A stretch of 64,000 nt of DNA from the NCBI GenBank assembly GCA_008632985.1, contig QPGO01000060.1, positions 1-64,000 of the forward strand. Reading direction: 5' to 3'. The stretch comes from Psammoneis japonica (Eukaryota). The position numbers were made by a program, and so were the translations under genes. The stretch's first letter is position 1, and each line of letters opens with the position of its first letter. Positions 1 to 56,300 of this stretch are shown piece after piece. A model generated the notes under the pieces. That model worked only from the letters and a program-made list of their open reading frames with translations. It ran no database searches and had not been told where the DNA came from.

Positions 1-74
1 GAGACTCATCTGCATTTAGACAGCAGTAAGGAGTTGTTGTTTGAATTCTTGCCATTTGCCTTCAATTTCTGTCA
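1..74 (+). repeat. 3' end of the 5' LTR
   Basis: gagactcatctgcatttagacagcagtaag...ttctgtca aligns to 6820-6894 with a few substitutions and one indel. Confidence 0.92.
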
Positions 75-1022
75 GATTAACAGTCTTGCTCATTGTCAAC
101 CCATTGAGCAACCGCCATCGTCGTCGTTGATTTACCAACGACGCCACCTCAATTCTGCGTGGACCTCCGTGTGCACTCTACATACATCGGCAAGTCTGCG
201 CGCATTCAATGCCAGGGCATTGGCAGGAAGTTAACGTCACCGTCAAGTCTCCTTGCCGCTGGACATCTGGATTGATTGTGCTGCCTTTGATCGCTGAAGA
301 CACACATTCAACGGTCATGTCCAAGTCCATCCTTGATCCTCATCCCTTGACACACCTGTTCATCGGTTGACGGTCAAGAACCCTGCATGTTCAAGGATCT
401 TCGTCGCTGAAGACACACGCACACACACACATCTTCACGGCCAAGAACCTGCACCCACTCTTCGGACTGCGGTTTTGCTGCCACTCTGCAAGCACACCGA
501 GTCCATTGCACCTGATCTGCCCCGGACCACTGGTGCTCTGCAGTTCCACCAGGTCCACGAGGACGACTGTGAGAGCAAGCAACCGTGATCACAGCCTGTG
601 TTGGGGCGAGGGTGCTTTCCCGCGTTTGTTCGTTCGTCCACAGCGCCTGACGCCTGCGTCAACTGGCCAGCCTGATCGGGAAATCCAACCGACACAAAAT
701 GAGAATGGTTCGGGGGTCTTGTCCACCTCTGGTCAGCTTACCTGCAGGGGTTTACAACCCGCTACTCCGCTCGCAAGCAACCCAAAGCGCCACTGGCTGC
801 GGGTTCGGACGTGCCGGCACAACTCTACGGACCGGATAGGAAGTTTAGCACTTGACAACGAATGGGACAGCAAAGCCCGGCAACTTCTGATTTTAAGATA
901 GATCAAGATTTCAAGTCAAGTCCATTTCAAGTCAAGTCTATTCTCACCCAAGTTTCAAGTCTGCCTTCACTGCCTTCGCTTCCCAACAAGAATTGCTTGT
1001 CCTGACACCACTCTTGTCTACC

Positions 1023-4000
1023 ATGGTTCTCACTCGTCAGCAACAAACTGATGGTTTCAAGCATGTTGTTGGAACCATGCTTGCCCAAGGTGTTGGGAGC
1101 CCTCTTCGTTTGGCTTTGACCCAAGACGGCACGGACTCGCATCAAGAACTGTTCACGTTCATGCCGTCCCAGATCGATTCGCTTGAGTGCAACAACGGCA
1201 CTAATGTGATCCCTTTGCCCCGCGGTTATAAGAACATGTTGGCAGCTCCAATTGGTCTGCACATTGTCAAAGCACACGAAGGTCTTGACGTTGCCAATGA
1301 CTCCTCGTTGTTCACGCATGACGAGTTCCTTGCCTGCCGCCTCAGCCCCGACTGCATGTCTTCTGTGTCCGTCGGCAGCTCACCCCTTGCACCTCCGCAT
1401 GTCACCAACCCAACCAAGGCACGCGACCCGGTGCGAGACTTCAAGCGAGGCATCAAGCGTGACCCCACCGCTTTCACGGCTCTCAAATCCAACAAGCAGT
1501 GGCACACTTGGCACACCTCACTTGTGGCACAAGCCCGTGCCCAAGACGTCAAGTGCACCCTAGACTCGTCGTACAAACCGACCAGCCCCGAAAGACAAAC
1601 TGCTCTTTGCTGAACAGCAAAAGTGCATGTTCGCCGTCTTCGAATGCATTCTTCTCACCGACAAGGGCAAGGCTCTCATTCGCGAAAATGTGGGGTCTTC
1701 TGACGCCCAGACCGTCCACCGCGCCTTGTCTGAGCATGCGCTTGCCTCCACCCGCGCATCTGTCGAGTCCTCCACCTTGCTCACGTGCCTTGCCACCGCA
1801 CGTCTTGGTGATGGCACTTGGAAAGGTCCGACCCACGGGTTCATCCTTCATTGGCAAGATCAGTTGCGCAAGTGCGAGGCACTCATCCCCACCAGTGACC
1901 ACTTCTCTGAAGGACAGAAGCGCGTCATGCTTTGAGAATGCCGCACACCCTGTCGAGGAACTCCGTGCTGTCAAGAACCAAGCTGATCAGCATCGCACGC
2001 AGAGTGGCAAGAGCCTCACATGCGATCAACACTGTGGCTTGCTCCTCTCCGCGGCGGCTCAATGCGACAGCACGTTTCAACCCAAGACGACACCTCGAGC
2101 TCCCCGACGACTCCGAGGAACCGTCCGACGATGTGTTCTACGACATTGACAGCGACATTGACGTCCTTCAGGCCAATGCAGCCTGCGCCCGTGGTCCCAG
2201 CCTCGCCGGTGACCAATGGAAACGTCTCCCTCCCGACCACCAACGGATTTGGGATTCGTTGCCCCATTCCTCCAAGGCGATCATCCTTGAGCATTCTCGT
2301 CCGCCTCCCCGCAACCCGCGAGCCAGCAACCACCATGAGTCCATTACGGCCAACCTTCACGACCAACGCCTTGGGAGTGACGGTGATGTCAACTTGTCCA
2401 ACACGACTCCTGCTGACTCCGGTGACTCCGCTCCAAATGTGGACACCACTTCGGATGATCCCATCCTGGCGCACCTCACCAAGTGCAAGCCACTGCCACC
2501 CGGTGATCTGCAACGTCTGTTGTCCCCTAACCAAGCCCCCAATGCTAGTCGACCGGGGCCATCCACCGCTCCCTCTACCTCGCCAGCTTCTGCCGATGAC
2601 ATGGAACTTGACGGCCGCACTTGCCGCCGCATTAACAACCACAATGTCATTTGCTCTGCCTCTGCTCATCGCTCCACACGCACTGGCGCTCTAGTCGATC
2701 GTGGAGCCAACGGCGGCATTGCTGGCGACGACGTTCGCGTCATTGCACGCACCTCTCGCCAAGTCGACGTTCAAGGCATTGACGACCATCAATTGGTGGA
2801 CATCCCCATTGTCACCGCTGGTGCCGTCATTGAGACCCAGCGTGGTCCCGTCATCGCCATCCTCCATCAGTGCGCATGCACGGGGAAGGGCAAGACCATC
2901 CATTCCTGCGGCCAGCTCGAATGGCACAAACAGGATGTCAACGATCGCTCTGTCAAGGTGCCCAACGGCTTGCAACGCATTGCCACTCCTGATGGCCATG
3001 TAATCCCCATTGACATCAAGGCCGGCCTGCCTTGTGTTGCCATGCGACCTCACACTGACGCCGAATGGGACACCCTGCCCCATGTCATCCTCACCGGTGA
3101 TGACACATGGGATCCTTCCATCCTCGATCACTCTGTCACTGACGACGACCAGTGGTGAGACGCGATCTCTGACCTGCAGGACGATCCCACTGCCAACCTG
3201 TTTGATGAATGCGGCAACTACCGTCATCGTGTCGTTGTCAACGAGACCATCATGTCCACTTCCTTGTCTGCCGATCACGCGTCCGCCCTCGATGATCACC
3301 TCATTCCGAACGACGACGTGTTCTACGAGTGTCATCTACACGCGATTGACCCCAAGGACGACGACGTCCCACCCCCGGAGCGCACTGTACAGCCCAAGGA
3401 CCCGCCCTTCGAGTCTCTTCGGCCTTGCTTTGGCTTCCCACCTGCCGATGCGGTCCGTCGTACTTTTGACTGCACCATGCAGTGCGCCCGCATGCCCGCC
3501 GGCACACACCTCAGGAAGGCCTGCAAATCACCCAACCCCGCCCTTAATGTGCACCGCCGCAACGAGCCTGTCGCCACTGACACCGTTTGTGCCGACACCC
3601 CGGCCGTCGACTCTGGTTGCACCAGTGCCCAACTGTTTGTTGGCACCGAGTCTACCGTCACTGACGTCTACGGCACCAAGACGGACAAAGAGTTTGTCAA
3701 CACACTCGAGGATCAGATCCGTGAGCGTGGTGCCCCATCCAAACTCATTGGCGACCGTGCTCAAGTTGAGATCAGCAACAAAGTGCTCGGGATCCTACGG
3801 GCCCTCTTCATCTCCAGCTGGCAAAGTGAGCCTCACCAGCAACACCAAAACTTTGCCGAGCATCGACACCAGACCGTGAAGCGCATGGCGAACACTGTCA
3901 TGGATCGTTTTGGTTCGCCCGCCCACACATGGCTGCTGGCGCTCATGCATGTGTGCTTCATGCTCAACCATGCAGCGTCCCCACGTCTCCACTGGCACAC

Positions 4001-6671
4001 GCCCCTCGAGACTCTCACTGGCTCCACCCCGGACATCAGCCCATTGCTTCGCTTTCACTGGTGGGAACCCATGCACTTCCACCTCAATGACTCCGATTGG
4101 CCGTCCGAATCCCATGAGTTGCGTGGACGCTTTGTTGGCATTGCTGAGCACGTCGGCCACCAGATGACCTTCAAGATTCTCTCTGACGAGACTCAGAAGA
4201 TCCTCTGCCGGTCCAACGTACGCTCCGCTGCCACCGATCCTGCCGTTCGAAACCTGCGTCTTGATCCTCTTGATGGGGAGCCACCTGAACCCATCATAAA
4301 ATCTCGCCATGACGACAACCCCGTCGATTCTCCTGATGGGGAGATCAGGACACCCAAGATGCCAGTTTTCGATCCACAAGACATCATTGGACGTACCTTC
4401 CTCATGCAGCCACAAGAGGATGGACAACGCCACAGAGCTCGCATCGTCAAGGCCATCGAAGACCACGAATGGAAAGTGAACGGCAATCCCAAGCTCACTG
4501 AGTTCGTCTGCTCTGTCAACAACGACGAATACGAGGAAGTCCTTGCCTGCAATGACATCATGAATCACATTGAGCAAGAAGACGAAGACACTGCCATTTG
4601 GAAATTTCGACGCATCGTGTCACACGAAGGACCTCTGAAGCCTCACGACCCAACCTGGAAAGGCTCAAGCTGCAACATCATGCTTGAATGGGAAAGTGGG
4701 GAGATCACGTCCGAGCCTCTTGCCATCATGGCCAAGGACGACCCCGTCACCTGCACCATCTATGCACGAGAGAACGGACTCCTCGACACGGATGGCTGGA
4801 AGCGGTTCTGCACCATCGCGAGGCGCCAAAAGAAGCCATTTCGCATGGCCAACCAAGCCAAGCTTCGCTCCTTCTGCACTGCACCTCGCTGCAAGCACGG
4901 ATGCGAAGTTCCCCGGAACTGCAAACATGCCATGTCACCAGACGAACGCAACGGCAACCGCAAATGGGGAGATGCAACTAATCTCGAGATGGACCAACTC
5001 GACGAATACGAAGTCTTCCATGACTGCGGGCCCTTTGAGTCTTCCACTCCTCCTGCGGGACACAAGAAGATCCGAGTGCACCTGGTGTGCGACGTGAAAC
5101 ACGATGGTCGCCACAAGGCACGACTCGCAGCCGATGGGCACCTCACGGACGTACCCATCGACAGTGTCTGCTCCAGAGCAGTCTCCCTCCGTGGCCTTCG
5201 GCTGATGATTTTCTTGGCCGAACTCAACGAGTTGGAGACATGGGCCACCAACATTGGCAATGCCCACCTTGAAGCCACCACTGAGGAGAAGCTTTACATT
5301 GTAGCCGGGCCCGAATTTGGCAAACTCGAAGGACACATCCTTGTCATCCACAAGGCCCTGTGTGGACTGCGCAGCTCCGGTCTCCGCTGGCACGAGCGCT
5401 TCGCCGACTGCCTGCGAGCTGAAGGCTTCTTCCCCTGCCGCGCCGAACCCGACATTTGGATGCGCAGGAACGGCGACCACTGTGAATGCATTGCCGTTTA
5501 TGTGGATGACCTCGCCATTGCCATGAAGGACCCTCAATCTTTCGTCGACACTCTCACGGAAAAGTGCAAGTTCAAGCTCAAGGGTGCGGGACCCATTGAG
5601 TTCCATCTGGGTTGTGACTTTTCCCGGGATCCCGACGGAACCTTGTGCCTGTCTCCGCGCAAGTACATCGAGCGCATGGTCGACAGCTGCGCCCGACTGT
5701 TTGGGGAGAAACCTGCCACCAATGCCCTGTCACCTCTGGAGAAGGGTGACCACCCCGAACTGGACACTTCCGAACTGCTGGGACCCGATGGCATTCACAA
5801 GTTCCAGTCTCTTGTTGGTTCACTCCAATGGGCAGTGTCCCTTGGTCGAATTGACATTGCCACGGCCGTCATGTCACTCTCTAGCTTCCGAGCTGCGCCC
5901 CATCAAGGCCACTTGGATCATGCCAAACGCGTCTGTGGGTGCCTCTCCAAGATGCAACACGGTGCTCTCCGCGTTCGCACGGAAGAGCCCGATTGTTCGG
6001 ATCTCCCTGCTCCCGCCTGTGAATGGATGCATTCCGTGTGCGGCGAAGCAGAAGAGATGATCCTGAAGGATGCTCCACTGCCCCTTGGCAAGTTCGTCAC
6101 TGCCACCCACTGCGTCGATGCAAACTTGTGCCATTGCATGCTCACCGGACGCTCTGTCATGGGAATGCTCCACTTCCTCAACAAATTCCCGGCTGATTGG
6201 TTCTCTAAGAAGCAAGCCACCGTGGAGACTGCGACCTGCGGGTCTGAATTTGTTGCCGCAAGGACTTGTGTCGAGCAGATTGTTGACCTGCGCATCACCC
6301 TGCGCTGCCTTGGCATCCCGATCCATAATGTCAGTCACATGTTCGGTGACAACAAGTCGGTTGTAGACAGTGCCACCATCCCGCACTCCAAGTTACACAA
6401 GCAACACACCGCACCATCGTTCCACCATGTGCGTGAGGCAATTGCCTCTGGTCACCTTGAGTTCCACTTCATCGAAGGCTCCCGCAACCCTGCTGACATC
6501 CTCAGCAAGCATTGGGGTCACTCCCAAATCTGGGACCTTCTCCGCCCCCTCATGTTCTGGAACTTCATTTCATTCAAAGTCGAATCTGTTTCTGTGACTC
6601 CTCAAGCAAACTGGGGAGTGACAGGATTTGAACAGGATTTGGGTGCGCGCGAAATGTCGCGCGCTGTTTAG
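1023..6671 (+). pseudogene. copia gag-pol polyprotein, disrupted by frameshifts (~1610, ~1932) and an in-frame stop (3156-3158)
   Basis: Gag motif FKRGIKRDPTAF; protease ALVDRGANGG; integrase ATDTV...LIGDRAQ...SEPHQQHQNFAE; RT DVKHDGRHKARL, GLRSSGLRW, IAVYVDDL; RNase H VDANL, GSEFVAAR, MFGDNKSVV, NPADILSKHW. ORFs 1932..3158 and 3252..6671 are in the same frame. Confidence 0.93.
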
Positions 6672-6894
6672 CTTGCCGCGCACAGTTTTGTGTGCTTTAG
6701 TTCCGCGCGTTCGCGCGCGATGTAGTTTGCTTTCGAGCCACAAGGCTCACAAGAACAATGACAGTAGCCCGATTGTACCAACTTGCACGTCTTTCGGCTC
6801 CTGTGACGGTCTCTGAGTGGAGACTCATCTGCTGTTTAGACAGCAGTGAGGAGTCATTGTTTGAATTCTTGCCATTTGCCTTCATTTTCTGTCA
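6619..6894 (+). repeat. 3' LTR (276 bp) with TGACAG...CTGTCA terminal inverted repeat
   Basis: Starts tgacagg directly after the purine tract ggggag and ends ttctgtca. Its 3' end matches window bases 1-74. Confidence 0.92.
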
Positions 6895-9100
6895 TGCACA
6901 ACCATGAGTGTTGTTGCCGGGCTCTTAAAAAGTCACAACATTGACAATGTTTTTCCAACAGTCAAAGGAGTGCCCCCAGCACAGAGTGCAATTTGGCAGA
7001 TTCAAGTGAGTGCAAATTGAGGTTTTTGCTGAACCTCATTCAAGGATGTGCACTCAGGAGTGAGATCTCCATCAGTGATTTGTGGTTGAGAATGGGAGTG
7101 CAACACACACATTGCCTGCTCCAGTGACCCAAGTGAAGACCTGAACAGATGGAAGCACCGTTTAATTTTTCCTTCCAAGTCTTGTTCAGTTGAGAATGAC
7201 AAGACCAAGACCAGAGATCACCTTTGAAGGTGTTGAACAAACAACAAAGTGGCCTCATCAAGGGCATGTGTGTCATGCTCTCTGTCCAAGATAAGATCTG
7301 CCATGGTGGTGTCACCTTTGTGTCCCAAGTCAACAGACAATGGGGGTGGGGGACAGTTGGTGGCATCCCTTGTGCTTGCCCGAAGTGTTTCTGATTGCAT
7401 GGGTGGAGAGCCACGGCAACATCCTTAGAAGCATCAACGGTGATCCAATCCATGTGCTCTTTCAAGTGAATTGCCAGATTCCAAGAAACTTGAATGCTGT
7501 TGATGCCTGCACCTCATTGTGCTTTGCAACAAGCCACCCTTTGGAACAATTCAGTGGTTTCCTCTGCTTTGCAATGTTGTGAAGGATGGTGGCTTTCTTG
7601 CATGATGCTTTTGTTCCTTTGAGATCTAACTCTGCAATCTTGTCAGCCATTTTTTGTTTGCAATGCACAGTGCTCTCTGCTGTGACCTGCTCACATTCCT
7701 CCAAAGTCAATGGAGTCACAAAGAAGCCAGCGAGTTTAGAGAGTGTTTTTGTTGCATCTGAGCAACAGTGTGGTCCAAACGTGTGTGCATCATTGACAAA
7801 AAATGAGTGAGGGTGTAAACTCAGAGTGTGTCAAAGGTCAGCCAACTTGACAGACCGGTCAGGTTTGTGGTGCAAACAGCACTTTTTTGCAGCAGCTGAG
7901 GAAAATTGCAACAGGTCTCTGTCCAAGCATTTGGCCAACTCATGATCCGGGATGTCCAGCTCAAGAAGATGGGTTGATCTCTCTGACACTGTGCAGCTCT
8001 CCAGCACTGGGCCAATGACATTCAAGCAAGCTGTGACTTGTGGTTTGGAGGATGCTTGAACATCCTGAAAAGCTGCTCTGGGAAGGTCAACCATTGGGTC
8101 ACCAAACAGAAAGGCCTTGCATCCACCAAAGCCAGTGGCAGCCAAAGCACCAGGGGTGGCAAGAACACAGTCAAGTTGCTTGGAACCTCTGGTGCAGGTG
8201 GAAAAAGCTGCACCACCCATGAGGTGAAAGAGCACATGTGAAAGATTGCATTGTTGGGGCAAGAGCAGACAAGGAGTCTGCATCTGTGGCAAAATTGGTG
8301 TTGTCCTGGCTCTTCCTTCAGCTTCATTGACTTGAGCTTGTTCACACCAAACAGAGAGCCAAAACAGCAGATGAGCACAACTTGGTCATGACCAACTTGA
8401 AAACCACAGGCCCATGTGTTGGACTGTTGATGTGCTTTTGCATGTCACCATGCAAGGCAGCTCCAATTGAATTGAGAAAAAACTTGGCTCTGACCACAAC
8501 AATTTCTGTTGATTGCACTGGTTGCCATTCACAAGCAATTCTTGCATGTGATCCTGAATCCCTTGCAGGTCCAATGGGCTGCAATCCATCACAAGATTCA
8601 ACTCTTGAGGTGCCCAGTCATCACATCATTCATCTGGACATGGAATGCCAAGTCTGCACCACTCATGAGAAGATGCTTGCAAACAGAGTTGGCCCAACTG
8701 ATGAGAGTCACCTTGTTGTTCTTGTTGGTGTTGATTTTTGACTCCAAACCCTTGGTGCAACAAGACATGATCATCATTGAATGACTCCAAAATGATGGTC
8801 ATTGGCAGTGCAGACTGTGTGGCACAGCATTGATGTTGATGACTTTTGGACCACCAGTCCAAGCAATTGAAGAACAACCAACACAGTGGTTGTGCTTGAT
8901 TTGCCTCAAGAAGCCAAAGAGAAGCAACTTTGAGATCAACTTTCAGGCTCAATGCTGGAATTGTCTAATGTGTCATTCCCAAATGAGCCAGCTTCTGCAT
9001 TGCCAATGAGAGTGCCTCTTGATCCTGCTGAACAATCACTCATTTTGGAGGAAAATCAGAGGTTTTGCTTTGCATCAACTTGATGGACTCAATTCAAAGC
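6895..9100 (-). mobile_element. Decayed non-LTR retrotransposon (LINE) ORF fragment, interrupted by the copia element
   Basis: Minus-strand translations give GHSFDCWKNIVNVVTF*EPGN (next to the LTR), WKE...SGLHLGHW, NQKHFGQAQGMPPT and RGSKQLDCVLATPG. These resemble motifs I recognise from diatom LINE ORFs (RWxxIVNVMIxKEPGN, SPSGxHLGHYK, HFGQAQGTPFT, RGSxxIDYxL). The right boundary is approximate. Confidence 0.75.
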
Positions 9101-10040
9101 AATGATGACACTTGAGCTCACAACCATGGAAATGAGCTAAAATGGAGCAGCACAACAAGCTGAAGCAACAACAACTGTCTTGAGCTCAAAAAGCACCAGC
9201 AGCTGCTGCTTTCAAAAGCAATCCTGGTCCTCACAAATGTGAAAAATCCACAAGAAGTGAGAGAAGGATGGAGAAGGTCCCAAACGCACCCCCAAAAAAG
9301 TCAGCTGGAAAAAAGACAGTTTTCCATGCCATGTCCATGAAAGAAATGAAGGATGGACAATGACCAAGATGAAGCTGGTCATGGAGGACCAAAAAGGACC
9401 AAAATGACATGTCAGCAAACCTGATGGTCCATGAGTGGATGAGCAAGACCAAACCCTCACAAAATCTGATGGCAACATTGGCGTGCATCACAGATCACAA
9501 ACTCTCATCACTGGCAGAGGATGGCATTGTCACAGTGACCAAGGACATGGCAAAGGTGACGAGGCTGCTGGGAGGTGGCCTGTGTTGACTGACCTTTGCT
9601 GACCTGCACTCTGTGCTTGTTCATGCACATGATGAGTTTTTTGGCAATGTGCAAGGGAAAAAATCTGGCACTGAACTCTGGGCAGTGCAACAATCTTGCC
9701 AGGAATTGAGGCTGCTGTGACCCCACCTTGCAACAGCCGCAACTCTTCAGAGCAATCGACTCAGCAACACCACAAGACATGCAGCAGCAACCATGGGATG
9801 CACAAAAGGATTAAAGTACAAGAGGAAGAGCAATCATTGAGTTTCCACCATGCCAGAAAAGGAAGCTGGGGCCGAGAAGCATTGAAAGAACAATGGGTGT
9901 GCAGAAGTGACAACGAAAGGACTGCAGAGGTTTCTGCGCTGCAAAATCCACCATCAAATGCAAGCAGCAGATGCTCTGACACATCACTGCAAATGGCAAG
10001 CATCAGCACAGAACAGAAAACAAAACAGCATGTTGTAGTA
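9100..10040. repeat. Unclassified TpA/CpG-depleted decayed repeat sequence
   Basis: Same TG/CA-rich, TA/CG-poor composition as the adjacent LINE; no recognisable domain. Confidence 0.45.
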
Positions 10041-10087
10041 AAAGACATCCCTGCCCATTAAGTGCAAAAGTTACAAGGTCCTCAAAC

Positions 10088-13000
10088 TCAGCGAAGAATG
10101 TCCAAACCTCCCTCCTCGCGCGGAGATGTCCGAACAAATTCGATTTCTTTTTGCACCCATTCTAAAAGATCCCACTGTCTCTCTCCCATGTTCCATTTGA
10201 GTGACAAAAACAAAATGTCTTCAACATCATCTTCAACAAACCCTGCGAGAGATGGTTTCACCCTTTCTCCGTACAGGCGTTCAACTTGGGGAGCATTCAC
10301 CTTGTCACGAGCAACTCTGGGAAATTCATCAACAAAGCATATTGCTGAGGTTAGCATCAGGGCAACCTCATGCGATTCCTTTGTGACATCTATGCCAAAG
10401 TTAGTCTGATGGACAGCAGTCAACGCAAAATCTTTCCAGTCAAAGCTGTGCTGTTCACCGCGACAAAAGAGCACTGCGGTCTGTCCTTCTTGTGTGTGGG
10501 ATAGGTCCCGCACCACTACCAACTCCTTCACTTGTGGCAAAATTTCTCTCCATGTGCTTTCAATAACAGACGGGTCATACTCATCACCACCAAAATTGAT
10601 TGATTTCCTGCTGCGTCCAGCTATGGTCAGCTTATTCTCGGTAAAAAAGCCAACATCTCCAGTTTCATACCATCCCTCATCATCCAAAGGGGTATCGGTA
10701 CCGCTGTTAAGATATTCGATCATCATTTGGCTTGATCGGAGAATAATGCTTCCTAGTGTGGCGTTCACTTCTTTTCGCGAATTCGTGCCGGGGTTTTCGT
10801 CGAGCGGCTCTACTCGTACTTCAACACCGTCACACAGAGTAAGAGCATCAGCCTCGGTAACATCGCGGCTTCCGATAAGGTGCGCTTCACTCGATCCATA
10901 GGTTTCATATATCTTTACGTGTGTCCCGTCTTCGCGTGAAAAGGCAAGTATGGCTTCATCGATACATGCCGGTAGTAGCTTGGATCCAATAGTCAATATT
11001 GTCCGCATTGACTGCAACGTTAGTGTCAGGTCTTCTGGATCCATATTGCTTACTGCGTCTACAACTTTGTCTAGTTGATGAGGAGAAACAACTGCGGCTG
11101 TGGCATCATTTGCCAACAAATATTCAAGAAGCCCTTCTTTTTCGTCGTCTTCCTCCTCCTCATCTTCTTCTTCTTGGAACGACGAACGAAAAATGGTATC
11201 AAAGATTGGCATCACGCACGCACCGAAAATCAAAGATGGAACATACACGTTGTCAAGACCCGCAGAGTCATCCATGCCGAGAGGACAGACTATCTTTTCG
11301 CTAGGGTCGTGTGATAGTAACTTCTGGGAATTGGTAGCAGTGACAAATACAGCCTCATATGAGCTTGCAACAACCTTTGGCAACCCTGTCGATCCAGACG
11401 TGAACGTCAGAATCGCTTCCTTGCTAAGAGGGAACGTCTTCGGTGTGTAAGGCAGTGCTGATAAATACGACTTCCAAGGAATGTCTTCTTCGACCAGAAT
11501 CATATTCGGTACACCTGGCACGAAGTCCAACGCCAAAACTACTCGAGTCGTGTTGTGACTATTCATGACAGATGAATAGCTCTCACTGGTCAAGCCATCG
11601 AGCACTATAACTGCGGGGTCAATAATCTCGACTACCTCGGGGAACCGGGGGTGCCACATCTGTCGTGCAACATTTGCATACGTGAAAGCATTCTTGAAAC
11701 AGGCGAGCATGAGTACGTATACATCGTACTCGTATGTAGTTTCAGGGGTCACAGCGATCATCACTCTTCCATTTGACCTAGGTGGCATGTGATGACGGAT
11801 AATCGCAGCTGCACGGTCAGCGTCGGCGTGGAGCTGTGCGTGCGTTCGGACAGTATCTCTGTATTCCCCTGAGGACTTTCCAACAGATACCATTGCGGGG
11901 GAAACTGCGAAGTTCTTGTCTGGTGGGCCGTCCAAAATTACAGACGCAGCGTGGATTAAGGCTTGATGTGAAGCTGAAGCGGCTTGATTCGGTGTAACAT
12001 TCACTTTAGACGGTGTTCCCACGGATCCACCAATAATAACGTCTTGCTTCGTAATCAGGAACCGGACTACACGATTGCTCACTGAGACACCACCGGGCTG
12101 GATCAAGACGTGCAAAAAACAGAGAAAAACAGGCAACCACATGATGCTGCGAGTCGAGAAGTTCTTAAATTCTCCCGTGTTGTTGGAGATCGCGGCTCTT
12201 TCGCTACCAATCTTTTTCGACTTTAACACATCCATGATACCTGGCTTGTTCTGGCAGTCGCTCCCATTTAAATCTTTTAGGGCTGTCCTTGCTACTTTCA
12301 AATTCACAGGCTCTGCCCCAATGCCAGCCATATGAAACCCAGGCCCCATTGCTATGATGATGACGCTGCGGCTTTCCTCAGTTAATTCGTTCCACGCTTC
12401 TGATGCCATTCGTAAGACTGTGCTTGACGCCAAGTTCCCGCCATCTCTGAGGCTAGAACGCATCCGAGCTATAGATTTTTGAGAAATATCAACCGCGGTG
12501 TTCTTTTCCATAGCATCAACCATCTTGGATCCGCCTGGATGAATGACATGCGACACTGTGGTCATTGGTGCAGCCCCCATAGGAGACACAGAAGACCTCT
12601 CGCTTGTTTTGGCAGTAAGGTCCGCAGCAAATCCAGGCACGTGCTTCTCAACAACGTCACAGAGCTCTTTTGTAGTGACAAAGTGATATCCCATTTGGTC
12701 GTAGTCAAAGTAGGAGACATGAGTCACGTGAGGGACACACTCTTGTTTTCCCGCAAGCACACGAAGCCCGCAAGCTCCTTCATTCCCATGGACGGAGTGA
12801 ATGCTATCTCTCACGGAATGTCCGCCCCGCATCACGCAAGCAGAGGCACAATCGCCGAATAGAGCAGAATTGAGGAACACACTCATACCTTGCTTGTGGG
12901 GCCGGAAACCAAGGGAGCAGAACTCCAAAGAGAGGATGAGTACGTTCTGAGTAGGGTTTCCCAGCAGCAAAGTTAATGCCATATCTAGGGCCACCGCACT

Positions 13001-14224: not shown

Positions 14225-15111
14225 GGAAGGCGTGCGAGAGAATGGGAGAGTCCACGAGTTTGTGAAATGAGGTCGCGATAAAAGAAATCTCGATGGAACC
14301 TGCAGGGAGTAAATGGTGGTGCAGTTGCAGACAATGTGTGTGAGTGATCGACGCGCAAGTGGAACAAACCAAGGCTCTCCCTCGAGACACAAGAGAGAAT
14401 ATGTCTGATGTTTGCCTTGTTTGGTGACATACCAGTACTGGTTGCTTTGAGCTGCACTGCTAAAACGAACGAATGAAATTTGGGAGAGGAAATAATTTTC
14501 AACGCGTGAATCTCCGAGTGCTTCCCGCCAAAACGAAAACGCATCCAGCCATGTTGACGAGATGGCACAGCTTTCAGCTTTCATGCCATCCGGCCGTTAT
14601 TAAATAAATAAAAACTGTATCGAGAATAAAGGACCTCTATCTTTTAAGTGGAGAGGGCCCAACTGACTCTATAATACAGCACATACTGCATAAATGTACA
14701 TTAGGTGCTGTGTTACTTACAGTAGGCCGCACTTGGGGAAACTTTCACACATACACTTCTCTATGCAATTATATGTATTCGTGTTCGAATAAAATAAAAA
14801 TTGGTGCGAAAATTTCACACATTTTTCGGCACGTGGCCTGATGATGCGTCAAAATTGGCTTTTGCTGACTCATAATAGAGTTGAAACACAATTTGATTGG
14901 CTGAAAATACAGCGCATGGGAACTGAACAACGGTCCACACAGCTTTTTCACTTCCTTGTTTTGCAAACTGTTTGTTGCGCAGAATTTCGCAATTAGAAAA
15001 ACCTGGACAACAGTGCAGCATTGCAAAAACCAGTGATGCACAGCAAGTGGACAGACTCCCAGCAACACTGAATTCACGTTCCCCATGATGACAACACTGT
15101 GCTGCCATCCA

Positions 15112-17131: not shown

Positions 17132-17351
17132 GAGCCAAGAGGGCAGGCCCAGCACAAGGAGAGGATGCCTTGTGGGTGGCTGAGCTCTTGGAGGAGTCAC
17201 CGTGCGACAGTGGCACGCAGCAGAAGGCAGGCAGACAGATGTGCGGACAACAACGAGAGGCCACCCCAGTTTCCCTCATTGTGTTTGGTGGACTGCCAGT
17301 GATGATGGGATCAGTTGCGTCAACCCAATGTGGGCCGACAATGCTGAAAAT
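17132..17351 (+). repeat. Split direct repeat A1
   Basis: gagccaag...cccagcacaaggagagga...gctgagctcttggaggagtcac...cccagtttccctcattg...gggccgacaa...ctgaaaat recurs at 25473-25708. Confidence 0.88.
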
Positions 17352-23700: not shown

Positions 23701-23789
23701 GAGAGCTGCTGCAACTGCTCTTCTCTCATCTGTTCTCCGAACTGCTGCCAGCCCCTGTGGAGACCCTGCAGTGCTCAGGACAGCTTGCA

Positions 23790-39226: not shown

Positions 39227-39411
39227 TGTGCATTAACCCGATGCTTCCATTCAAATTATAATTTACTCTTCTATCTCCTGTACCGTCTGTAGCTTTTATC
39301 GTGCCTTGCCCAATGAAGGCCACTGAATAGCATCGACATACACACATCTCGAAATTTGGCGTGTCATAATCTCAGTTCTTCTGAGTTTCTTCTTTCTCCC
39401 ATGCATCCACC

Positions 39412-42400: not shown

Positions 42401-44340
42401 GGCTCATGCTGTGTGTGATGTCATTTTTGACAAATGGTGCCATTTTTGCTTGGCTGCTGCACACTGTAAGAACAAGTCAAGATTGATCCACGTTGTAACT
42501 GTTTTTGTTTTTTTTTTCTGTGCCATGGTGGCTGCCTTCAAGTCATTTAGAAAGCACTCAAATCCTTGCTTGGGTGATGATTGTGAGAGGGGCACCAAAG
42601 AGCAAACTGCAAAACTCACAGACTTGTTTCAGTGCCAGTGCTTGGCAATCAAGTGTGCCCAAGAGAGGAGTGGTGAATCCCTTTTTTTGCATGAAGTGGT
42701 GGAGCCACACAAGTGAGCCACACAAAGATCACAAAAATGCACCTTGACCTTTTTGCCAAAGAAGTCAACCAGGGCATCACAGCAAAGACTCAATTTGGCA
42801 TGAAGTGAGTTGCAAAATTCAAATGTGGACTCATCGTCTTTGCCAAGTTGTGCTGCAGTTGCCTCCCTCTAGCCCCAACAACGACTGGGTGTGATGCAAA
42901 CTGGCACACTTCTTTGTGGACTGCACCAGCAGCCATTTTTTGCACTGCACTGTGTGCCAAGACAATGAGCTCTGCTGATGCTGCCACTTTTTCTTGGAGG
43001 CTTCTGATGTGGACATTCAGGTGGACAAAAGGAGCATCAAAGTGACAACTGAAGAGTGGAAATGAGTCACAGGTTGCTCTTCTGCACAAAGCGCCAGAGC
43101 ACTGTCTTGTCAGAAATGAAAAGCCACACCCTGCATTGTCAAAGGAGCTCAAAGCATCTTGTCCAAAGGATGTTTTGTCCAACTCAGCTCAGTTGGCAAC
43201 AAGCACAAGCAACAAATCAGGCAAATGAGAGCCAAACAAGCCTCTTTGACAATGCAAGATGTGTGAACCTCAAATGCAAAAAGCAACTTGTCCCATGACA
43301 AATTCAGAACTCAGTGCATGCATGTGTCACCACATGTCAAGGTGCAAGAGCCCATCAAAGTCACACTCTCCAGCTCTGGGTGGGAATTTTTGGGACAATT
43401 GTCCCACAAAATTCTGTGTGCGACTCTGTGGCTTGCAGCGCGCCAGGCACAGTGAGTGTGTGGTGTGTGCATGTTGTGTCTTTGACGTCTTAACAAATGG
43501 CCACTTTTGTGGCACCATTGCACCTCCTCTTCATGCTCAAAACTTTTGAAAATCTGCACGCATGTCTGCATTCTGCAGGCATCACAGAGAGTGCAGCTCT
43601 GCACAAAAAAACACATTGAAAGCTGCCCTGTGGATTGCCCAAAAAATTGCTTCACAAATCAGCCCAAAACCAACCCTCATTTTAGTCTTTTGAACATGCA
43701 CCTCACTGCCCTCTGCTGCTCTTCATCAAGCCTCTCCTTGATGAGGGCTTTGAGCACTCCCTTGTCAAAGTTCGTTTTTTGGATTCATCAGCTCCAGCAG
43801 GGAGACCAAAAAAAGACAAAAGAGGATTTGAGAAGGGTGCGCAAAACAGCTCCTGCTGCGTGCATGGTTTATTTTGTGAGTGCTTGTCAGTCATCAGATC
43901 CATGTTGTTTTTTGGCATTTGTGTTCCTTGCACCGCCTGTGAGTGCATGGGTTTCTGGCATCGTCTTGCAAATCAGCTCGCCTTGCTGTGTCACAGCTGG
44001 TTGCACAGCAGGGGGCGGGTCGCAGAGGAGTGCAAGGTGCTCGCTGTCCCAGCATCAAAGGATTTGAGGATGAGCAAAAACCCAACACCAAAAGGGAGAG
44101 TGTGAACAAGCTCTGTCAGGTGGGAGACAAAGCAGTGAAGCACAGCACACTTGCAGCTGGCAAATGGACAAAAACTGAGCACAGACTGCAGCAAGCGAGA
44201 GCCGCTGCTTTTTGCAATGCTGCTGGTGGCTTCTCTCCGGTTTTCGTGACACGGCAACTCCACATAAAAACAAACGATTGATTGGGGAAACATGCATGCC
44301 AAAGAAGGATGACATCACATCTTTGGAATTTTTTTGCAAG
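39412..44340. mobile_element. Unclassified decayed repeat island with long direct repeats
   Basis: TA/CG-depleted. 39412-40220 is repeated at 41800-42768. No recognisable protein domain. Confidence 0.6.
42199..42418 (+). repeat. Tandem repeat, 3 copies of ~73 bp
   Basis: ggacctttttggcaattttgagaagagtgcaatggtggcagactggcagatgtggcaggctcatgctgtgtgt repeated three times with variants; there is a single related unit in the upstream copy (~39816). Confidence 0.88.
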
Positions 44341-44570
44341 AGGTAAAGGGAGCAGTGCAACACGTGTCGGAAGGTCATTGCCGCGTGTCAAAAATTCTGC
44401 GCCAACGAAACATTCGTTGTACTAAAACTCTGTAGAATCCTACGTAAAAGATGCGTGCCTCCTCGGCATTTTGAGGCGAACTTATCTTGGAATTTCCCCT
44501 CGCTCATTCATCTTCATTCTTCATCTCACTCTCGCTGTGTTGTTCCTCCATTGCAGGCAGTGAAGCAGAG

Positions 44571-48650: not shown

Positions 48651-48829
48651 TGTCTTGGTTCAACAAGGTATCATCAAATACTGCAGTCACCCACCGTGCC
48701 GAATTGTTGCAGCATCTCTCAACAGCGGATTCATCACGTCGTGTCGTCGTGGCGTGTGCGCGGTTGGTCGCGCTTGCGACATTCGAATGTCAGATCCCGC
48801 GCGTTTGACCTCGGGCCACTAAAAAACAT

Positions 48830-49480
48830 GTTCACTTTTTATGGCTGGAGTGGAGATGGCTCCACTGGTGCTGAAGATGCCTTCTCCCAAAACCCAAGTT
48901 GGATGGCAGGGCCAGAGGGTCGGAGACGTGGTCTCTCGCTTCTCGCGCTTCTTCTGCTTTTCTTGAGGAGCGGCCAAAGGCAAGGAGAAAACAGTTGACG
49001 GCGCACTCAACAATGTGATGCACACACAATTCAGACAGGCAGTGGGTTACCTTGGTGCTTCAACTTCTTGAGGCCAATGACCTGCTGCATCGCTTTTCTC
49101 TGTTTCTCTCTGTGCTTGCGATGCGCTGCTTGAGCGTTGCTGTGAACCCCCACGTGCTCAACACCTTGGGTGCAGCAAAACATGCACACTTTGCTTTTTT
49201 AAAAGACAGAGTGGAAATGGCTGCTGCTCTGTGCCAAAGTGTGCCAAGACCTCCTGGCTCTTTTTGTGCTTTGTGCCGGTGCCGAGAGGAGCTGCGTGTG
49301 GCCCACCCCTTGTCGTCAACGAAAGAGCGGGGAGTGCGTGAAGAATCCAGCTCCACAAACTTGCAACTGCAGCCCTTGTTACAAGAACAACACTGCTTCT
49401 CCACTCTAGAGAAGTGACTGCTTCATCCAAAGCCAGCAGAGCCACGGACAGCCACAGCAAACATACAAACGCAAGCAAAT
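48830..49480. repeat. Small TpA-depleted island, probable TE remnant
   Basis: Abrupt local scarcity of TA and excess of TG/CA between normal-composition flanks; no domain recognised. Confidence 0.4.
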
Positions 49481-51981: not shown

Positions 51982-53673
51982 TCAAAAGCGTCGTGCATTG
52001 TAATGTGGAGCCGACGAGGGCGCATAGTGACTCCCTTGTGCATAATAGCCATTGTGATGCGGAGTTGCTTCTCCTTCTCTTTCTTCCTCCTCGGATTCTT
52101 CATCCTCCTCATCGGAGGAAGGAACCCTCTTGAGCTGACCGGGCGATCTTCTCGTGCCGCCAGGACGAGACTCCCACACAAATTCAATCGAGTTTAATTT
52201 GGCAATTCTTTCTGGGTTCAATGATACCTTTTCTCCCTTCAAAAGTCTCTTGTACAGTCTTCGCTGCCGGTGCACAAACTCGCCAAGTTTCGGACACTTT
52301 TGAGGTACATGGCTGTGCCCATTCTCCTTGTAGTAGGCCTCCAGTTCCGCAAAGCGCTCTTCCCATGACCGCGGTTCCTTTCTGTTTTCTGGCTGAAATG
52401 GCGCAGTCCATACAAAGCCAAGCTCTGTCAATTTGTCGAACTGTTCTGCTGTGACATTCGTGGGCTTCCCTTGCTTCATCGCCGCATATTTTTCTCTCAT
52501 GAGGGAGACCCATCTACCGGAAGGGTGTCTACAAGGTGGATCGTTTCCGTTGTTATCCAGGCGGTACTTGATCCATCGGTCGAGACTTTCCTCAAATGTC
52601 AGCCTCTTTCTCATGCTAAAAACAAATCCAATGTCTGTTAGTCTCTGCATCTTGTTCGCATCGAGTTTCGATGGTTCGCCGCGTTGCAACTTGGTGTACT
52701 CCTTACGCTGCATCTCAACCCAAGAGCGCAAAGGATGCTTGTCGGGTACCTTGGTGTGATCGTTCTCGTCCTTGTACGCTTTAATTTCTTGAAAACGTTT
52801 CTCCCACCTCGCATCGGCATTCTTTTTCTTGGCCTGAATCCGTTCCTCGGTGTCTTCGCGAACTGCGGCGTCGGCCTTGCGTTTTCTCCCCCGCTTGGGT
52901 GCCAACTCCAGTCCCAGATCAACAAGCCGCTGTATGCGTTCTTGTGTCATTATCGGATCAGGTGTCGTGGCGGCTTTTCGAGCCATGGAGCGCGCTTTGG
53001 CTACCCAAGCGCCCAAACCCTTGAACTCTTCCTCTTCCATGAGGTTGTCATTCACGAGAACATTGCAGTGTCCATGCTTGTCTCGATATCGCCGAAGTAA
53101 TTTGAAGTTTTCTTCCCATTTGAGTTCTTTCTTTGTCAATCGCCTCTCAAACACAAAACCAAGTTCCCTTAGCAATTTTATCTTGTCTTCGTTCATGGTG
53201 CTCTCGCGCCCCAGCCGGCCCTCGAGAATGTCAATGAATCTTGTGTACTCCATGTGCTGTTGTTCCACCCAATTATAGAGAGATGACGAATCAACGGGTA
53301 TGTTGAAATGGTCATTGACTCGCTTAAACTCGGCAAGCTCAGAGTATTTCTTCTTCCAGTCTCGCTCAATCAGTCGGGAAATCGTCGGCAGTTCAGCCAT
53401 TGCTGCGGCAGAAAAATCGCTCTTCTTAGTGGCAGCTTCCTTCTTAGCTTCCTCCTTTGTCTTTGTTGCTGCTGCTTTTGCGACAATCTGGGCCACGACA
53501 GCTTCCATGGCAATTGTGTTGGGTGTCTTCGCTGGAGCAGTTGATGCGCCGGCCGGTTCAGCGGTAGGTGGCGTTGTTGTTGCAGCTGTTGCTGTCACTG
53601 CTGTCGTTTCGACTTCTTCTTCTTCTTCTGTTCGAGTGGCAGAGCTGCTGGGTGCAGACGTTGTTGACGACAT
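51982..53673 (-). CDS. Helicase-associated (HA) repeat protein, about 5 HA domains
   Basis: Repeated W-x-x-x-F/Y-x-x-L-x-x-Y/F-x(4)-H...L-x-x-WV-x-x-QR...L-x-x-LGF-x-W/F units (e.g. WEERFAELEAYYKENGHSHVP...LNSIEFVW). ATG at 53673. Confidence 0.9.
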   Translation of the reverse strand: MSSTTSAPSSSATRTEEEEEVETTAVTATAATTTPPTAEPAGASTAPAKTPNTIAMEAVVAQIVAKAAATKTKEEAKKEAATKKSDFSAAAMAELPTISRLIERDWKKKYSELAEFKRVNDHFNIPVDSSSLYNWVEQQHMEYTRFIDILEGRLGRESTMNEDKIKLLRELGFVFERRLTKKELKWEENFKLLRRYRDKHGHCNVLVNDNLMEEEEFKGLGAWVAKARSMARKAATTPDPIMTQERIQRLVDLGLELAPKRGRKRKADAAVREDTEERIQAKKKNADARWEKRFQEIKAYKDENDHTKVPDKHPLRSWVEMQRKEYTKLQRGEPSKLDANKMQRLTDIGFVFSMRKRLTFEESLDRWIKYRLDNNGNDPPCRHPSGRWVSLMREKYAAMKQGKPTNVTAEQFDKLTELGFVWTAPFQPENRKEPRSWEERFAELEAYYKENGHSHVPQKCPKLGEFVHRQRRLYKRLLKGEKVSLNPERIAKLNSIEFVWESRPGGTRRSPGQLKRVPSSDEEDEESEEEEREGEATPHHNGYYAQGSHYAPSSAPHYNARRF

Positions 53674-53879
53674 GATTACTGCTAAAGGGAGAGCAAAGAG
53701 AGACAGTTTCGACAAGATCTATCCGGAGCAGCAGAGCGTCATCGTGTTGGAGTGTGTCGTCGTTCGTCATGTGATGCGTCGCTGTTGCGTTTTGTTGCGG
53801 TGTGTCGTCATCTCACTTGGGCGATTGTGCTTCCGAAACAAGAGCGAACAAGCTGGCTGAGCAACTTTTTCCCTTTGAT

Positions 53880-56300
53880 TCTCTTCATCATGATGTGGAA
53901 CAGTTGAAAATGGCAATTGTCAATGCAGTTGCAGTTGCTGTCAAGAAGCTCAAGAGCCACAAGGAGGAGAAAACATGCACATGAGTGTTCGCTCTTCGCT
54001 CGCAAGACACCCTGGACCATCACTTTTTCTTCTTTTTTCGTCCTTTTCAAAAGTGAAGTCCTTGGATTGCTTGTGGATTGTTGCAATTGTGCAAGTTGCA
54101 TGTCTGCTTCAAGTGTGCCTGCTGTCAGCCACTCTAGAGATTAGAGAGGCAAGGCAGCATCATTGGCTCCACAACAACCCACTCACCAGGCCACAAAACA
54201 ACAAACGGGAAGAAGGCGGGTTCATCCCATGTCAGGTTGCACACAAAAAAGCTCACTTGCACTGTTGTCATGCCTCCATCATCAGCACAAGCAACATCCA
54301 ACCTGTTGGAAGGTGCTGGATGTGAAACTACAGTCTTCAGACATGTGGGTGTGATGCGCAGTTGACTGTCACAGCCCATCTCTCACAATCCTTTCCCACC
54401 CGCCCATTTGCCATTTTTTGTTGGGTCTCCTGAGAAAGCATGGTGAAGGGTGTTGTTGATTGTAGACCACAGCAATGCTCTGCATGTGTTGCAGTCACAC
54501 CACCAAAATGTCAGCTGTCAGATTCCCATGAAGAGTGCCGATGGCCTCAGTTCTTGTTGGGTCATTTTCCCAACAGAGAGTTCCCCGATGAACACTTGCG
54601 GTGTGTGGTGGTGTTCATGGTTTTTCTTCTCCTCAACAAAGCTCAAACCACATTTTTGGTTTCAATTTTGTGGTGACCCTCAAAATGACAGAAGCAAGTT
54701 GGAACATGAGCTTGACCCTTGAGAAGTCACAGATGACAAGGCAGGTGCACTCGCTCACAGGGTCACACAGAAAAAGGAGAATGAGTTCTCTTTGATGATG
54801 AAAAGTCCAAAGATGGCAGAGGAGATGAGCTTGACCTGAACAATGTGGGTGATTTGGTGAGACTTCTTGCATCTCATCATGCCAAGCACAACTCACAACC
54901 ATGCCAACTGGCAGCAGCACAGCTGGCATGGTGCAGGTGCTGCAAAACCTTGGAGATGCCACCTCAGCAAGTGAGTGTGCAAGCCCAGAGAGTGCCAAGC
55001 CTCCAGAGTGACAAACGGGACAATCAAAGCATTCCTCTCACAATGGGGAAAACCACAATCCAAGCTCACAACAAGCATGTCATGGGATGTTAAGTGGCAC
55101 ACCCAGTGCATGGCATGTGCATTTTTGAGCCCACCAAGCAGCCCAACAACCCCATGAGTGCTGGTGCACAAGGTGCCCTTGTGAGTTGTTTGGTGGCTTG
55201 CAACATTGCAGCTGTGGTTTGCTTTTGTAAGCAACTGGTGCAGTGGCCATGCAGCGCATTGCCCCTGCAATTTTGGCATGCCTTGTTCCCAGCTTCTGTG
55301 CTGGCTTTCCTTTTTTCCTTTTCTTCTTTGGCTTTTTTTGGTCAAGCAATCTGAAGGCATTCACACACAACCAAGCACACAGCCAAGTGCTGGGTGTTGA
55401 GCATCATTGACGAGGCTCTCCCAGGTGGTGGGGTGCTTTCTGTTTCCATCTGCAGCCCAAGCAACAGGAAAGAAGATTGGATTTCTTTTTGACAAAAGGG
55501 TCTGCACACATGCAGTGAGAGTGACAAGTTGCTGTGTGGAGCATCAGTGCTGCCAGTCATTGCGGAGTTGTTTGTGGCAGCAGCTGGTGGTGAGTGGCAA
55601 CAGCCACCCCAGTGGGATGACTGAAGGAGGTTGGGGTTGCTTTTTTTCTCAGCAGAGCAGTGCACACCAGAGCCATCGAGACGACCTTTGCATGGACACA
55701 GAGGCAAAGATTTGAGTGGAGAGCGGGCATCTGGCAGAGCAGCTTCCCAAAACAAGCACCTTGAGAATTGCCAGCCAATGGACGGTGTCTTGGCAATGAA
55801 AATTAGCCCAGGCAAGAGGAGCAGAGCTTCACACCATGGCTTGACACCCTCGGCATGCAACAGCCCGATGCCCAGCTGCAGAGTGCTGAGCCGCTGTGTG
55901 TCGGAAATTTTGACAATGTCAAAGCTGTGTCACAAAACCACAGCACCCAATGTGCCAGAGGATCACAGCACAAAAAAATTGGCAGCCATTGACAGGAGGA
56001 TGCACCACCACACCACTGCCAATGAGTTGCAGGGTGTGCTCAAGGAGCTCCACACAGACTGCTCCCATCCACCACATGCTCCTTGTTCGGCACACCAGGT
56101 GGTGCTTCCAGCTCTTGGAGAGCAGCACACCTCAAAACAGTCCCACAGGAGATTGGTCCACTGCATGAAGAGGCTGAGTGTCACCAGGAGAGCTTCTTGT
56201 GGGTGAGGAGGAGTTGCTGCAACATGACACACACTGCAAAAGTTCTGGTTGGGCAGAACACGGGAGGTCACTCGTCTGCGTTGTCGGTTTGTCGGGGGGC
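53880..56300. repeat. Unclassified TpA/CpG-depleted decayed repeat island
   Basis: Near absence of TA and CG, many overlapping Cys/His/Gln-rich spurious ORFs, no recognisable domain. Confidence 0.55.

Follow-up and report, generated by a model that had tools for sequence, protein, structure and literature searches.

Near-saturated loss of TpA from an LTR retrotransposon and unclassified islands in a diatom-like genome

Introduction

The closest described counterpart of the pattern reported here comes from the chlorarachniophyte Bigelowiella natans, in which, according to the text of a preprint, 231 of the 302 nuclear mutations found in 15 mutation-accumulation lines fell into two viral inserts, an integrated nucleocytoplasmic large DNA virus (NCLDV) and a virophage region (Mettrop et al., bioRxiv 10.64898/2026.01.13.699255). 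As reported there, 230 of these 231 were A-to-G or T-to-C changes, all at TpA, and they arose at about 6e-7 per site per generation in some lines only; the genome further holds 124 clusters that are poor in TpA and rich in CpA+TpG, and reverse transcriptase (RT) and DDE domains are enriched among its TpA-poor coding sequences. As the mechanism the preprint puts forward deamination of adenine, with an ADAT2-like candidate (10.64898/2026.01.13.699255). Here we analyse 64,000 nucleotides of contig QPGO01000060.1 (assembly GCA_008632985.1, Psammoneis japonica; hereafter the window), in which a Copia-type long terminal repeat (LTR) retrotransposon and several unclassified islands have lost nearly all of their TpA steps.

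The two cases have in common that A:T is changed to G:C only at TpA, yielding TpG or CpA depending on the strand, and only in foreign or silent DNA. They differ in their hosts, a member of the Rhizaria there and a diatom-like organism here, and in their targets, since B. natans carries partly depleted NCLDV and virophage inserts (Rho 0.45), whereas the window carries near-saturated LTR retrotransposon sequence and unclassified islands with observed/expected ratios (O/E) of 0.06-0.19. Moreover, the mutation rate was measured directly in B. natans, while the process here is known from the sequence record alone. Full-text literature searches found no report of TpA loss in diatoms and the B. natans preprint as the sole description. 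The initial annotation of the window had taken the phenomenon to be undescribed, which the preprint (10.64898/2026.01.13.699255) overturns; the window is instead the first case found in a diatom-like host of a very recently recognised phenomenon. What it adds is the near-saturation of LTR retrotransposons, a flank rule by which ATAT is erased and TTAA spared, a separable CpG decay in older islands, and island edges that cut through repeat units. The words CpG, LTR, retrotransposon, 'context' and 'flanking' are absent from the preprint's text, and its supplements may hold context data.

Fungal repeat-induced point mutation (RIP) resembles this process in hypermutating repeated or foreign DNA on both strands and with dinucleotide specificity, leaving genes intact and ruining the proteins of transposable elements (TEs). 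However, RIP turns CpA into TpA and raises TpA, which is the opposite direction; it makes many stop codons where the process here makes none, and no dependence on homology is apparent here at 80% likeness. RIP is usually called at TpA/ApT >0.89 and (CpA+TpG)/(ApC+GpT) <1.03. In the islands the first index is 0.10 (background 0.60) and the second 1.79 (background 1.23), the inverse of RIP. Decay of 5-methylcytosine (5mC) at CpG would explain the change of CpG to TpG/CpA in four of the islands, together with replacements of Arg by His, Cys or Gln, but it cannot remove TpA, and the Copia element as well as three of its metagenomic relatives (contigs L035, L031 and L014) have lost TA only. Inverse RIP indices and TA-only depletion thus bear out the proposal of the initial annotation that the process is distinct from both. 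For diatoms, TE methylation and RID-related DNMT4 genes have been described in a source whose consulted part holds nothing on TpA (PMC9998398).

Deaminases of the ADAR, ADAT2-ADAT3 and TadA kind share with the present signature a deaminated A that is read as G and a target A directly preceded by U or T. Unlike the process here, which affects duplex genomic DNA on both strands and within limited domains, they act on RNA, or on single-stranded DNA in special settings; DNA editing by ADAT2 is reported for amphioxus and trypanosomes (as cited in 10.64898/2026.01.13.699255). Vertebrate APOBEC enzymes are likewise deaminases that leave a hypermutation record in LTR retrotransposons, but through C-to-U changes on minus-strand cDNA and G-to-A on one strand, as the source text has it (PMC4866542), and not through A:T to G:C changes on both strands after insertion. 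Lastly, 5-hydroxymethyluracil (5hmU) of dinoflagellates is a base-level TE mark within the lineage of stramenopiles, alveolates and Rhizaria (SAR) with a reported TA/TC preference (PMC11572971); it differs in being an epigenetic mark for which the texts consulted report no mutational signature and, in Breviolum, no motif.

Results

TpA is nearly absent from discrete islands of the window

Over the whole window the O/E is 0.35 for TA and 0.71 for CG, against 1.41 for TG and 1.37 for CA. Islands poor in TA were called by a two-state Poisson hidden Markov model (HMM) in 100-bp bins. The called islands, together with the older part of the first of them (6895-10040), are as follows.

201-700 plus 901-10000: TA-poor island; for 901-10000, TA O/E 0.12 and CpG O/E 0.67
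6895-10040, strand unassigned: unclassified island ending about 50 bp from the stop of a polyketide synthase (PKS) gene; TA O/E 0.06, CpG O/E 0.10
15001-25800, plus strand: island with LTR-like direct repeats at 17132-17351 and 25473-25708, 78% alike; TA O/E 0.06, CpG O/E 0.26
39601-44400, strand unassigned: unclassified island with an internal repeat (39412-40223 / 41800-42771); TA O/E 0.06, CpG O/E 0.18
48701-49400, strand unassigned: small TA-poor island between two host genes, 5 TA in 700 bp; TA O/E 0.13, CpG O/E 0.72
53501-56500, strand unassigned: unclassified island with a narrower CpG-poor core at about 53850-56260; TA O/E 0.07, CpG O/E 0.36

The segments between them have a TA O/E of 0.51-0.58 and a CpG O/E of 0.86-1.02. 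When 1-10040 is treated as a single island, the pooled islands hold 155 TA in 29,340 bp, whereas 1,095 would be expected from the background density of 1,293 TA in the 34,660 bp outside (Poisson P ~1e-278), which confirms that the depletion is real and far beyond chance. The limits are sharp to tens of bases; at one edge, for example, the last sparse TA lies at 25793 and dense TA begins at 25824. The island coordinates of the initial annotation agree with the HMM limits to a few hundred bases, and its hand counts (3 TA in 7021-7620, 4 in 4621-5220 and 31 in 28321-28920) are exact.

Strong depletion in the islands is limited to TA and CG among the 16 dinucleotides, and the largest excess is found for TG and CA (O/E 1.3-1.9). 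AA, GC and AT show milder shifts, AA, AT and TT are without depletion, and TC stands at an O/E of 0.92-1.10 against 1.15 in the background. The loss is fully accounted for by the gain: a deficit of TA+CG of 61.3 per kb is matched by a surplus of TG+CA of 61.8 per kb, and the balance also closes in individual islands (84.4 versus 82.4 in 6895-10040; 35.3 versus 36.2 in 48701-49400). Near-loss of CpG, a point absent from the initial annotation, affects four of the six islands (O/E 0.10-0.36).

Conserved tyrosines record the change of TpA to TpG and CpA

One island sequence, the Copia element, encodes an identifiable TE protein and has the following features.

1-6894, plus strand: Copia-type LTR retrotransposon, its 5' LTR cut by the window start; TA O/E 0.19, CpG O/E 0.87
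1911-6671, plus strand: Copia polyprotein frame, open apart from one in-frame TGA at 3156-3158
6820-6894, plus strand: end of the 3' LTR, aligning with the end of the 5' LTR at 1-74

The open reading frame (ORF) 3159-6671 matches the RVT_2 domain (E 2.8e-23) and has 2,105 database relatives at an E of 1e-10 or better, the best 120 of which are mostly polyproteins of about 1,900 aa with about 65% identity. Other copies of the element part from the window sequence beyond 6894. The element is nested within the older island 6895-10040, which has lost CpG too.

We compared the Copia protein with its homologues over 602 conserved columns, defined by at least 80% agreement among 30 homologues. In the 32 columns where Tyr is conserved, the window has Cys 15 times, His seven times, Tyr six times, Phe three times and Trp once, while the 19 other residue types are kept at 73-100%. 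Tyr to Cys corresponds to TGY and Tyr to His to CAY, that is, to a TAY codon hit at its A or at its T, and together they make up 22 of the 32 columns. Further replacements follow the same rule (Ile to Met as ATG, Leu to Pro as CCA and Val to Ala as GCA, two of each), and five changes of Arg to His (CAT) record some loss of CpG. Tyr makes up 0.8% of ORF 3159-6671 compared with 3.3-5.1% in all 120 of the listed homologues, and Cys 3.6% compared with a mean of 0.9%.

The relatives of the element are mostly not poor in TA. Over the matched region, 47 of 50 metagenomic Copia relatives have a TA O/E of at least 0.5 (median 0.73). The three depleted ones, L035 (0.15), L031 (0.26) and L014 (0.35), all have raised GC and retained CpG; they are environmental contigs from other records with the same Tyr to Cys/His pattern as the window, and L014 is an intermediate that keeps 10 of 18 Tyr. 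TA-normal controls keep their Tyr (L001 18/20, L003 20/20). Over 24 conserved C-terminal Tyr columns, the window, L035, L031 and L014 differ in their combinations of Cys, His and Tyr, one column reading C,C,H,Y in that order and another H,H,C,Y, a sign that each copy was hit independently.

A second coding sequence, in the island at 15-26 kb, points the same way.

19002-20228, plus strand: decayed coding remnant of an unnamed family with proteins of about 760 aa

Here none of four conserved Tyr is kept (His 2, Cys 1, Phe 1) and only one of four conserved Arg (the others Cys, Gln and His), both small numbers; Tyr content is 0.2% against 1.7% in the homologues and Arg content 1.5% against 5.6%. 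On these small numbers, the signatures of TpA loss and of CpG loss both appear to be present.

Copies of repeats differ by the same changes and are cut by island edges

In four pairs of repeats within the window, CA versus TG is the commonest dinucleotide difference, with 32 cases where 2,000 column shuffles average 2.4 and never exceed 10, and CG versus TA double mismatches number 0. A fifth, self-overlapping tandem pair was excluded from this test and added no CA/TG case. The two Copia LTR ends (1-74 and 6820-6894) differ by TA versus TG and by TG versus CA within 74 bases; since both were identical at insertion, these differences arose after it.

At the edges of islands, single repeat units are partly inside and partly outside the depleted domain, as in the following case.

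25716-25955, plus strand: repeat unit X', straddling the island edge, with its inner copy X at 25240-25480

X' retains TA at eight sites where X has CA (7) or TG (1). Similarly, at the edge at 39.4-39.6 kb, one TA and seven CG survive in copy A of a repeat at places where copy B mostly reads TG. Island edges therefore run across repeat units, whose outer part stays unmutated, and this is more indicative of a chromatin domain than of homology sensing. In addition, 9339-10005 and 15342-16675 are single-copy in run X1 (described below) at 80% likeness, a level beyond which old repeats could have diverged, and yet are TA-depleted. With single-copy stretches depleted and repeat units cut, the description of the process as repeat-restricted and RIP-like in the initial annotation goes beyond what the sequence shows. 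Nor was its affected copy of a host gene recovered: when 22 host ORFs were run by tblastn against the window, no island proved to contain a paralogue, the search picking up only the island's own internal repeat. Its central claim, a change of TpA to TpG/CpA at the DNA level on both strands of TE and silent islands with genes spared, is borne out by the Tyr record, the mass balance and the comparisons of copies.

Both strands are hit, with a flank preference and separately from CpG loss

TG and CA are about balanced in number in five of the six islands (P 0.05-0.78; four of them have TG:CA of 353:363, 1189:1093, 571:523 and 323:331). In Copia alone CA exceeds TG (TG:CA 548:655, P 0.002), and its Tyr to Cys and Tyr to His changes stand at 15:7 (P 0.13). 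These counts show that both strands are hit.

Survival of TA was then counted per strand-symmetric tetranucleotide, with either host DNA or 22 TA-normal relatives of the same gene as the baseline.

ATAT: survival 0 (0 against 97) on the host baseline, 0.05 on the relatives baseline
ATAC/GTAT: 0.02 on the host baseline, 0.04 on the relatives baseline
CTAA: 0.30 on the host baseline, 0.63 on the relatives baseline
TTAA: 0.66 on the host baseline, 0.64 on the relatives baseline

The flanks affect survival on both baselines (chi-square 97, P 6e-17 with host DNA; P 3e-7 with the 22 relatives), and the change is favoured by an A in front of TA, which amounts to a T behind it on the other strand.

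Loss of TpA and loss of CpG are separable. TA alone is lost in Copia and in 48701-49400 (CpG O/E 0.72-0.87), as well as in L035, L031 and L014; CpG alone is lost in eight of the 50 Copia relatives (L009, L026, L033, L043 and L046-L049; CpG O/E 0.07-0.25, TA 0.52-0.78), so that CpG decay occurs in other hosts without the TpA process; and the older islands have lost both. Because a young Copia is nested in an old island, this suggests that TA loss may be faster than CpG loss, or that this Copia copy may be unmethylated.

Other records of the same sequence

Run X1 consists of contigs with an even word depth of about 60; the sequencing platform is unrecorded, and the run may stem from the sample that the window was assembled from. 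These contigs reproduce the window with 14 letter differences over 6895-14907 and 7 over 14879-17171. The comparison of 6895-14907 with the 8,038-base X1 contig also has 33 small gaps; gaps and letters could be alleles or strain differences, or leftover indel errors of long reads. Within single-copy islands 13 of 14 differences are transitions, few of them at TpA, and since little TpA remains they are uninformative on ongoing activity. Independent of this assembly are the three depleted metagenome contigs and the mutation calls that the preprint made from Illumina data.

In the same run, the summed word depth across Copia is 65,000-120,000 compared with about 60 in flanking single-copy DNA, which suggests a family on the order of a thousand copy-equivalents, summed word depth being different from copy number. 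Relative to its relatives the element has shifted in base composition by -4.9 points for A, -2.4 for T, +6.1 for C and +1.3 for G, a pattern that does not fit a simple two-way model. A 200-bp patch within the element, at 701-900, has TA at normal density (8 TA, O/E 0.81).

Discussion

A probable local TpA mutator in silent domains

The comparisons above demonstrate the direction of the change, its dinucleotide specificity, its action on both strands and after insertion, its sharp limits, its flank preference and its separability from CpG loss. We have high confidence that the process is real, works at the DNA level after insertion, is limited to domains and is specific for TpA with a flank rule. 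The reading that we prefer goes further and holds that a local DNA-level mutator, recruited by chromatin, deaminates adenine at TpA in silent domains as a defence; we give it a probability of roughly 0.6.

Such a mutator would rewrite A:T to G:C at 5'-TA-3' steps, the product being TG or CA depending on which strand has its A hit. It would act only inside silenced domains, here the abundant Copia, the LTR-flanked element and several unclassifiable islands, and spare adjacent genes to within tens of bases. It would act after insertion, independently on each copy and almost to completion, with its highest rate at ATA/TAT flanks and its lowest at TTAA. The older islands would in addition have undergone the ordinary CpG to TpG/CpA decay expected of methylated repeats, a process separable from the first, both losses ending as TG and CA. 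In coding sequence no Tyr codon would escape and many codons for Ile, Leu and Val would be lost, and no new stop triplet would be made, TAA to TGA merely keeping one. The role would be genome defence.

The chemistry could be the conversion of adenine to inosine in DNA by a deaminase of the ADAT2/TadA type, whose natural substrate has U before the target A: in tRNA, the A34 targeted by ADAT2/TadA is, as far as is known, always preceded by U33. We infer this as the first choice at a little under even odds, because the outcome fits and because the preprint cites DNA-editing ADAT2 enzymes. Three observations suggest that recruitment would be by the chromatin state of silent DNA and not by repeat homology: island sequence can be single-copy, CpG decay occurs in the same places, and edges run through repeat units.

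Several points weigh against this reading. The whole analysis rests on one 64-kb window. Neither tRNA anticodon loops nor ADAR are known for preferring A at -2 or T at +1, and the survival counts blend the effects of the -2 and +1 flanks in such a way that the position that matters is inseparable. The sparing of edge copies could instead reflect selection on promoter-proximal DNA. The agreement with X1 is limited support, as the run is possibly the source sample. Among the best-supported private differences of the window Copia relative to its family, eight in number, none is at TpA and four are at CpG; with a further 895 variable places outside this set, some of the family's TA loss may predate its amplification. 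Lastly, the reading does not account for an abundant family, on the order of a thousand copy-equivalents, with a ruined, Tyr-depleted polyprotein, which would have come about through hits on every copy once inserted or through amplification of an already mutated one, in trans or by duplication.

Alternative explanations

The alternative that survives best, although we consider it unlikely, is oxidation of thymine. A TET/JBP-type dioxygenase acting at TpA in silent DNA would produce 5-hydroxymethyl- or 5-formyl-uracil, which would mispair with G at replication and give T to C (TA to CA, and TG on the other strand), an outcome that sequence cannot tell apart from adenine deamination. For such a route 5hmU or 5-formyluracil (5fU) would have to be mutagenic enough. 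Dinoflagellates, which belong to SAR, have a TET/JBP enzyme that makes 5hmU, enriched on repeats, and its inhibition de-represses the marked TEs; older work cited in the same source found that the T in TA and TC is preferentially replaced (PMC11572971). The word 'hydroxymethyl' does not occur in the text of the B. natans preprint. However, TC is not clearly depleted in the islands, and the base-resolution map of Breviolum, as far as the source text goes, gives no sequence motif for 5hmU (PMC11071213).

Far less probable is a passive regional bias without any targeted enzyme, through GC-biased gene conversion, relaxed selection or a repair defect of heterochromatin. The change is indeed from AT to GC and limited to non-genic, probably heterochromatic DNA, but more than 90% of the sites are removed within sharp limits while AA, AT and TT are undepleted, and we know of no passive bias that singles out one dinucleotide and follows a rule set by its tetranucleotide context. 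In B. natans, moreover, the rates reported in the preprint's text exceed the background 1,000-fold and do so only in some lines.

Slightly less credit still is due to editing of retroelement RNA from A to I by an ADAR- or ADAT-like enzyme with U before A, followed by reverse transcription and insertion. The best-characterised target here is a retrotransposon, and RNA editors favour U 5' of A (10.64898/2026.01.13.699255, Discussion). Such editing is disfavoured by the common sense-strand T to C changes (Tyr to His 7/22), by TG being about equal to CA in most islands, and by the signature differences between the two LTRs of one inserted copy. Islands without RT that are single-copy at 80% likeness are equally depleted, island edges cut repeat units, and the target in B. 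natans is described as a viral insert that is present once, is transcriptionally silent and mutates while the cells grow vegetatively. The argument that the initial annotation had made against RNA editing is therefore upheld by the sense-strand T to C changes, the LTR pair and the RT-less islands.

It is highly improbable that no mutator acted and that the islands are foreign or old DNA of intrinsically TA-poor (and CpG-poor) composition, a possibility that the initial annotation had itself raised. Dinucleotide signatures do vary between genomes, and four islands are without identifiable relatives. Against this stand the conserved Tyr turned into Cys and His, the TA-normal composition of 47/50 relatives, the excess of CA/TG double mismatches, the TA kept in edge and LTR copies and the exact mass balance of TG+CA; for Copia and the island at 15-26 kb, intrinsic composition is contradicted.

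Equally improbable is an artefact of sequencing or assembly: modified bases cause systematic miscalls, and 33 small gaps in 8 kb relative to the X1 contig suggest a long-read assembly, but X1 contigs at even word depth of about 60 have the same TA-free sequence, three metagenome contigs from other records share the Tyr to Cys/His pattern, and the mutations described in the preprint were called from Illumina data and differ between lines.

Implications

A signature near saturation in a second lineage suggests a wider defence of SAR algae rather than a curiosity of one species. Whether diatoms and chlorarachniophytes share a chromatin-targeted editor of duplex DNA that changes A:T to G:C at TpA, with a preference for ATA/TAT, in silenced mobile and viral DNA is a tentative proposal to which we attach somewhat more doubt than belief. 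If it is true, the editor would amount to a natural 'inverse RIP', possibly a natural adenine base editor of double-stranded DNA, and it would be widespread in SAR algae, shaping repeat landscapes and swelling predicted gene sets through stop-poor ORFs. For base editing, an enzyme found in nature that acts on adenine (or thymine) within chromatin DNA would be of interest as a tool. For diatoms, CRISPR knockouts, methylomes and chromatin maps exist, and as tractable hosts they could allow the enzyme to be identified; the flank rule, the separation from CpG loss and the domain-like edges narrow the candidate enzymes and the routes of targeting.

The stop codons that TpA loss removes bear on annotation as well. 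TAA and TAG together occur 7 times per kb (both strands) in the islands and 32 times in the background, and ORFs of at least 100 aa number 38 per 10 kb compared with 24. Many long, empty island ORFs on both strands follow from this near-absence of TAA and TAG in TA-free DNA, and gene finders may call those of 6895-10040, 15001-25800, 39601-44400 and 53501-56500 as genes.

Further features of the islands and host genes

A Pfam scan of 111 ORFs of at least 90 aa from the non-Copia islands gave no credible domain, the single match (E 0.0077) lying under the cut-off, and blastx of the five non-Copia island stretches against 120 Copia homologues gave no match. ORF 19002-20228 has 62 matches (P0241-P0302) in a representative library of 1.84 billion proteins, the best at an E of 8.5e-26; a Pfam scan of six members of this family found only a C-terminal zf-CCCH domain, in one of them. 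A word-based search with the homologue P0241 returned nothing beyond P0241 itself, and a scan of viral contigs yielded no relatives of it. No RNA evidence is listed for 10001-20000. Island 39601-44400 contains a short tandem duplication at 42197-42433, with a period of about 73 bp and 91% likeness.

The host genes between the islands have normal composition. At 56026-62256 on the plus strand, an ATRX-like SNF2 helicase with a zf-CW reader domain begins at the edge of a TA-poor island, and TA-poor sequence covers the first ~300 bp (56026-56309) of the upstream ORF of this gene. Among named relatives, the SNF2 ORF is closest to diatom proteins (Asterionellopsis 48%, Conticribra weissflogii 40%), followed at comparable coverage by those of plants, animals and fungi at no more than 33%, so that the host is diatom-like and not B. 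natans. Further host genes encode a fatty-acid hydroxylase, an HA-domain protein and an RNA recognition motif (RRM) protein. The host ORF 10088-14596 on the minus strand (1,502 aa) joins a type III PKS, with the N- and C-terminal domains of chalcone/stilbene synthases, to an AMP-binding (acyl-activating) domain. At 26165-38941 on the plus strand, a series of long ORFs resembles one very large, intron-poor gene, with a CEMIP beta-helix (E 2.1e-41) and a DUF1800 domain.

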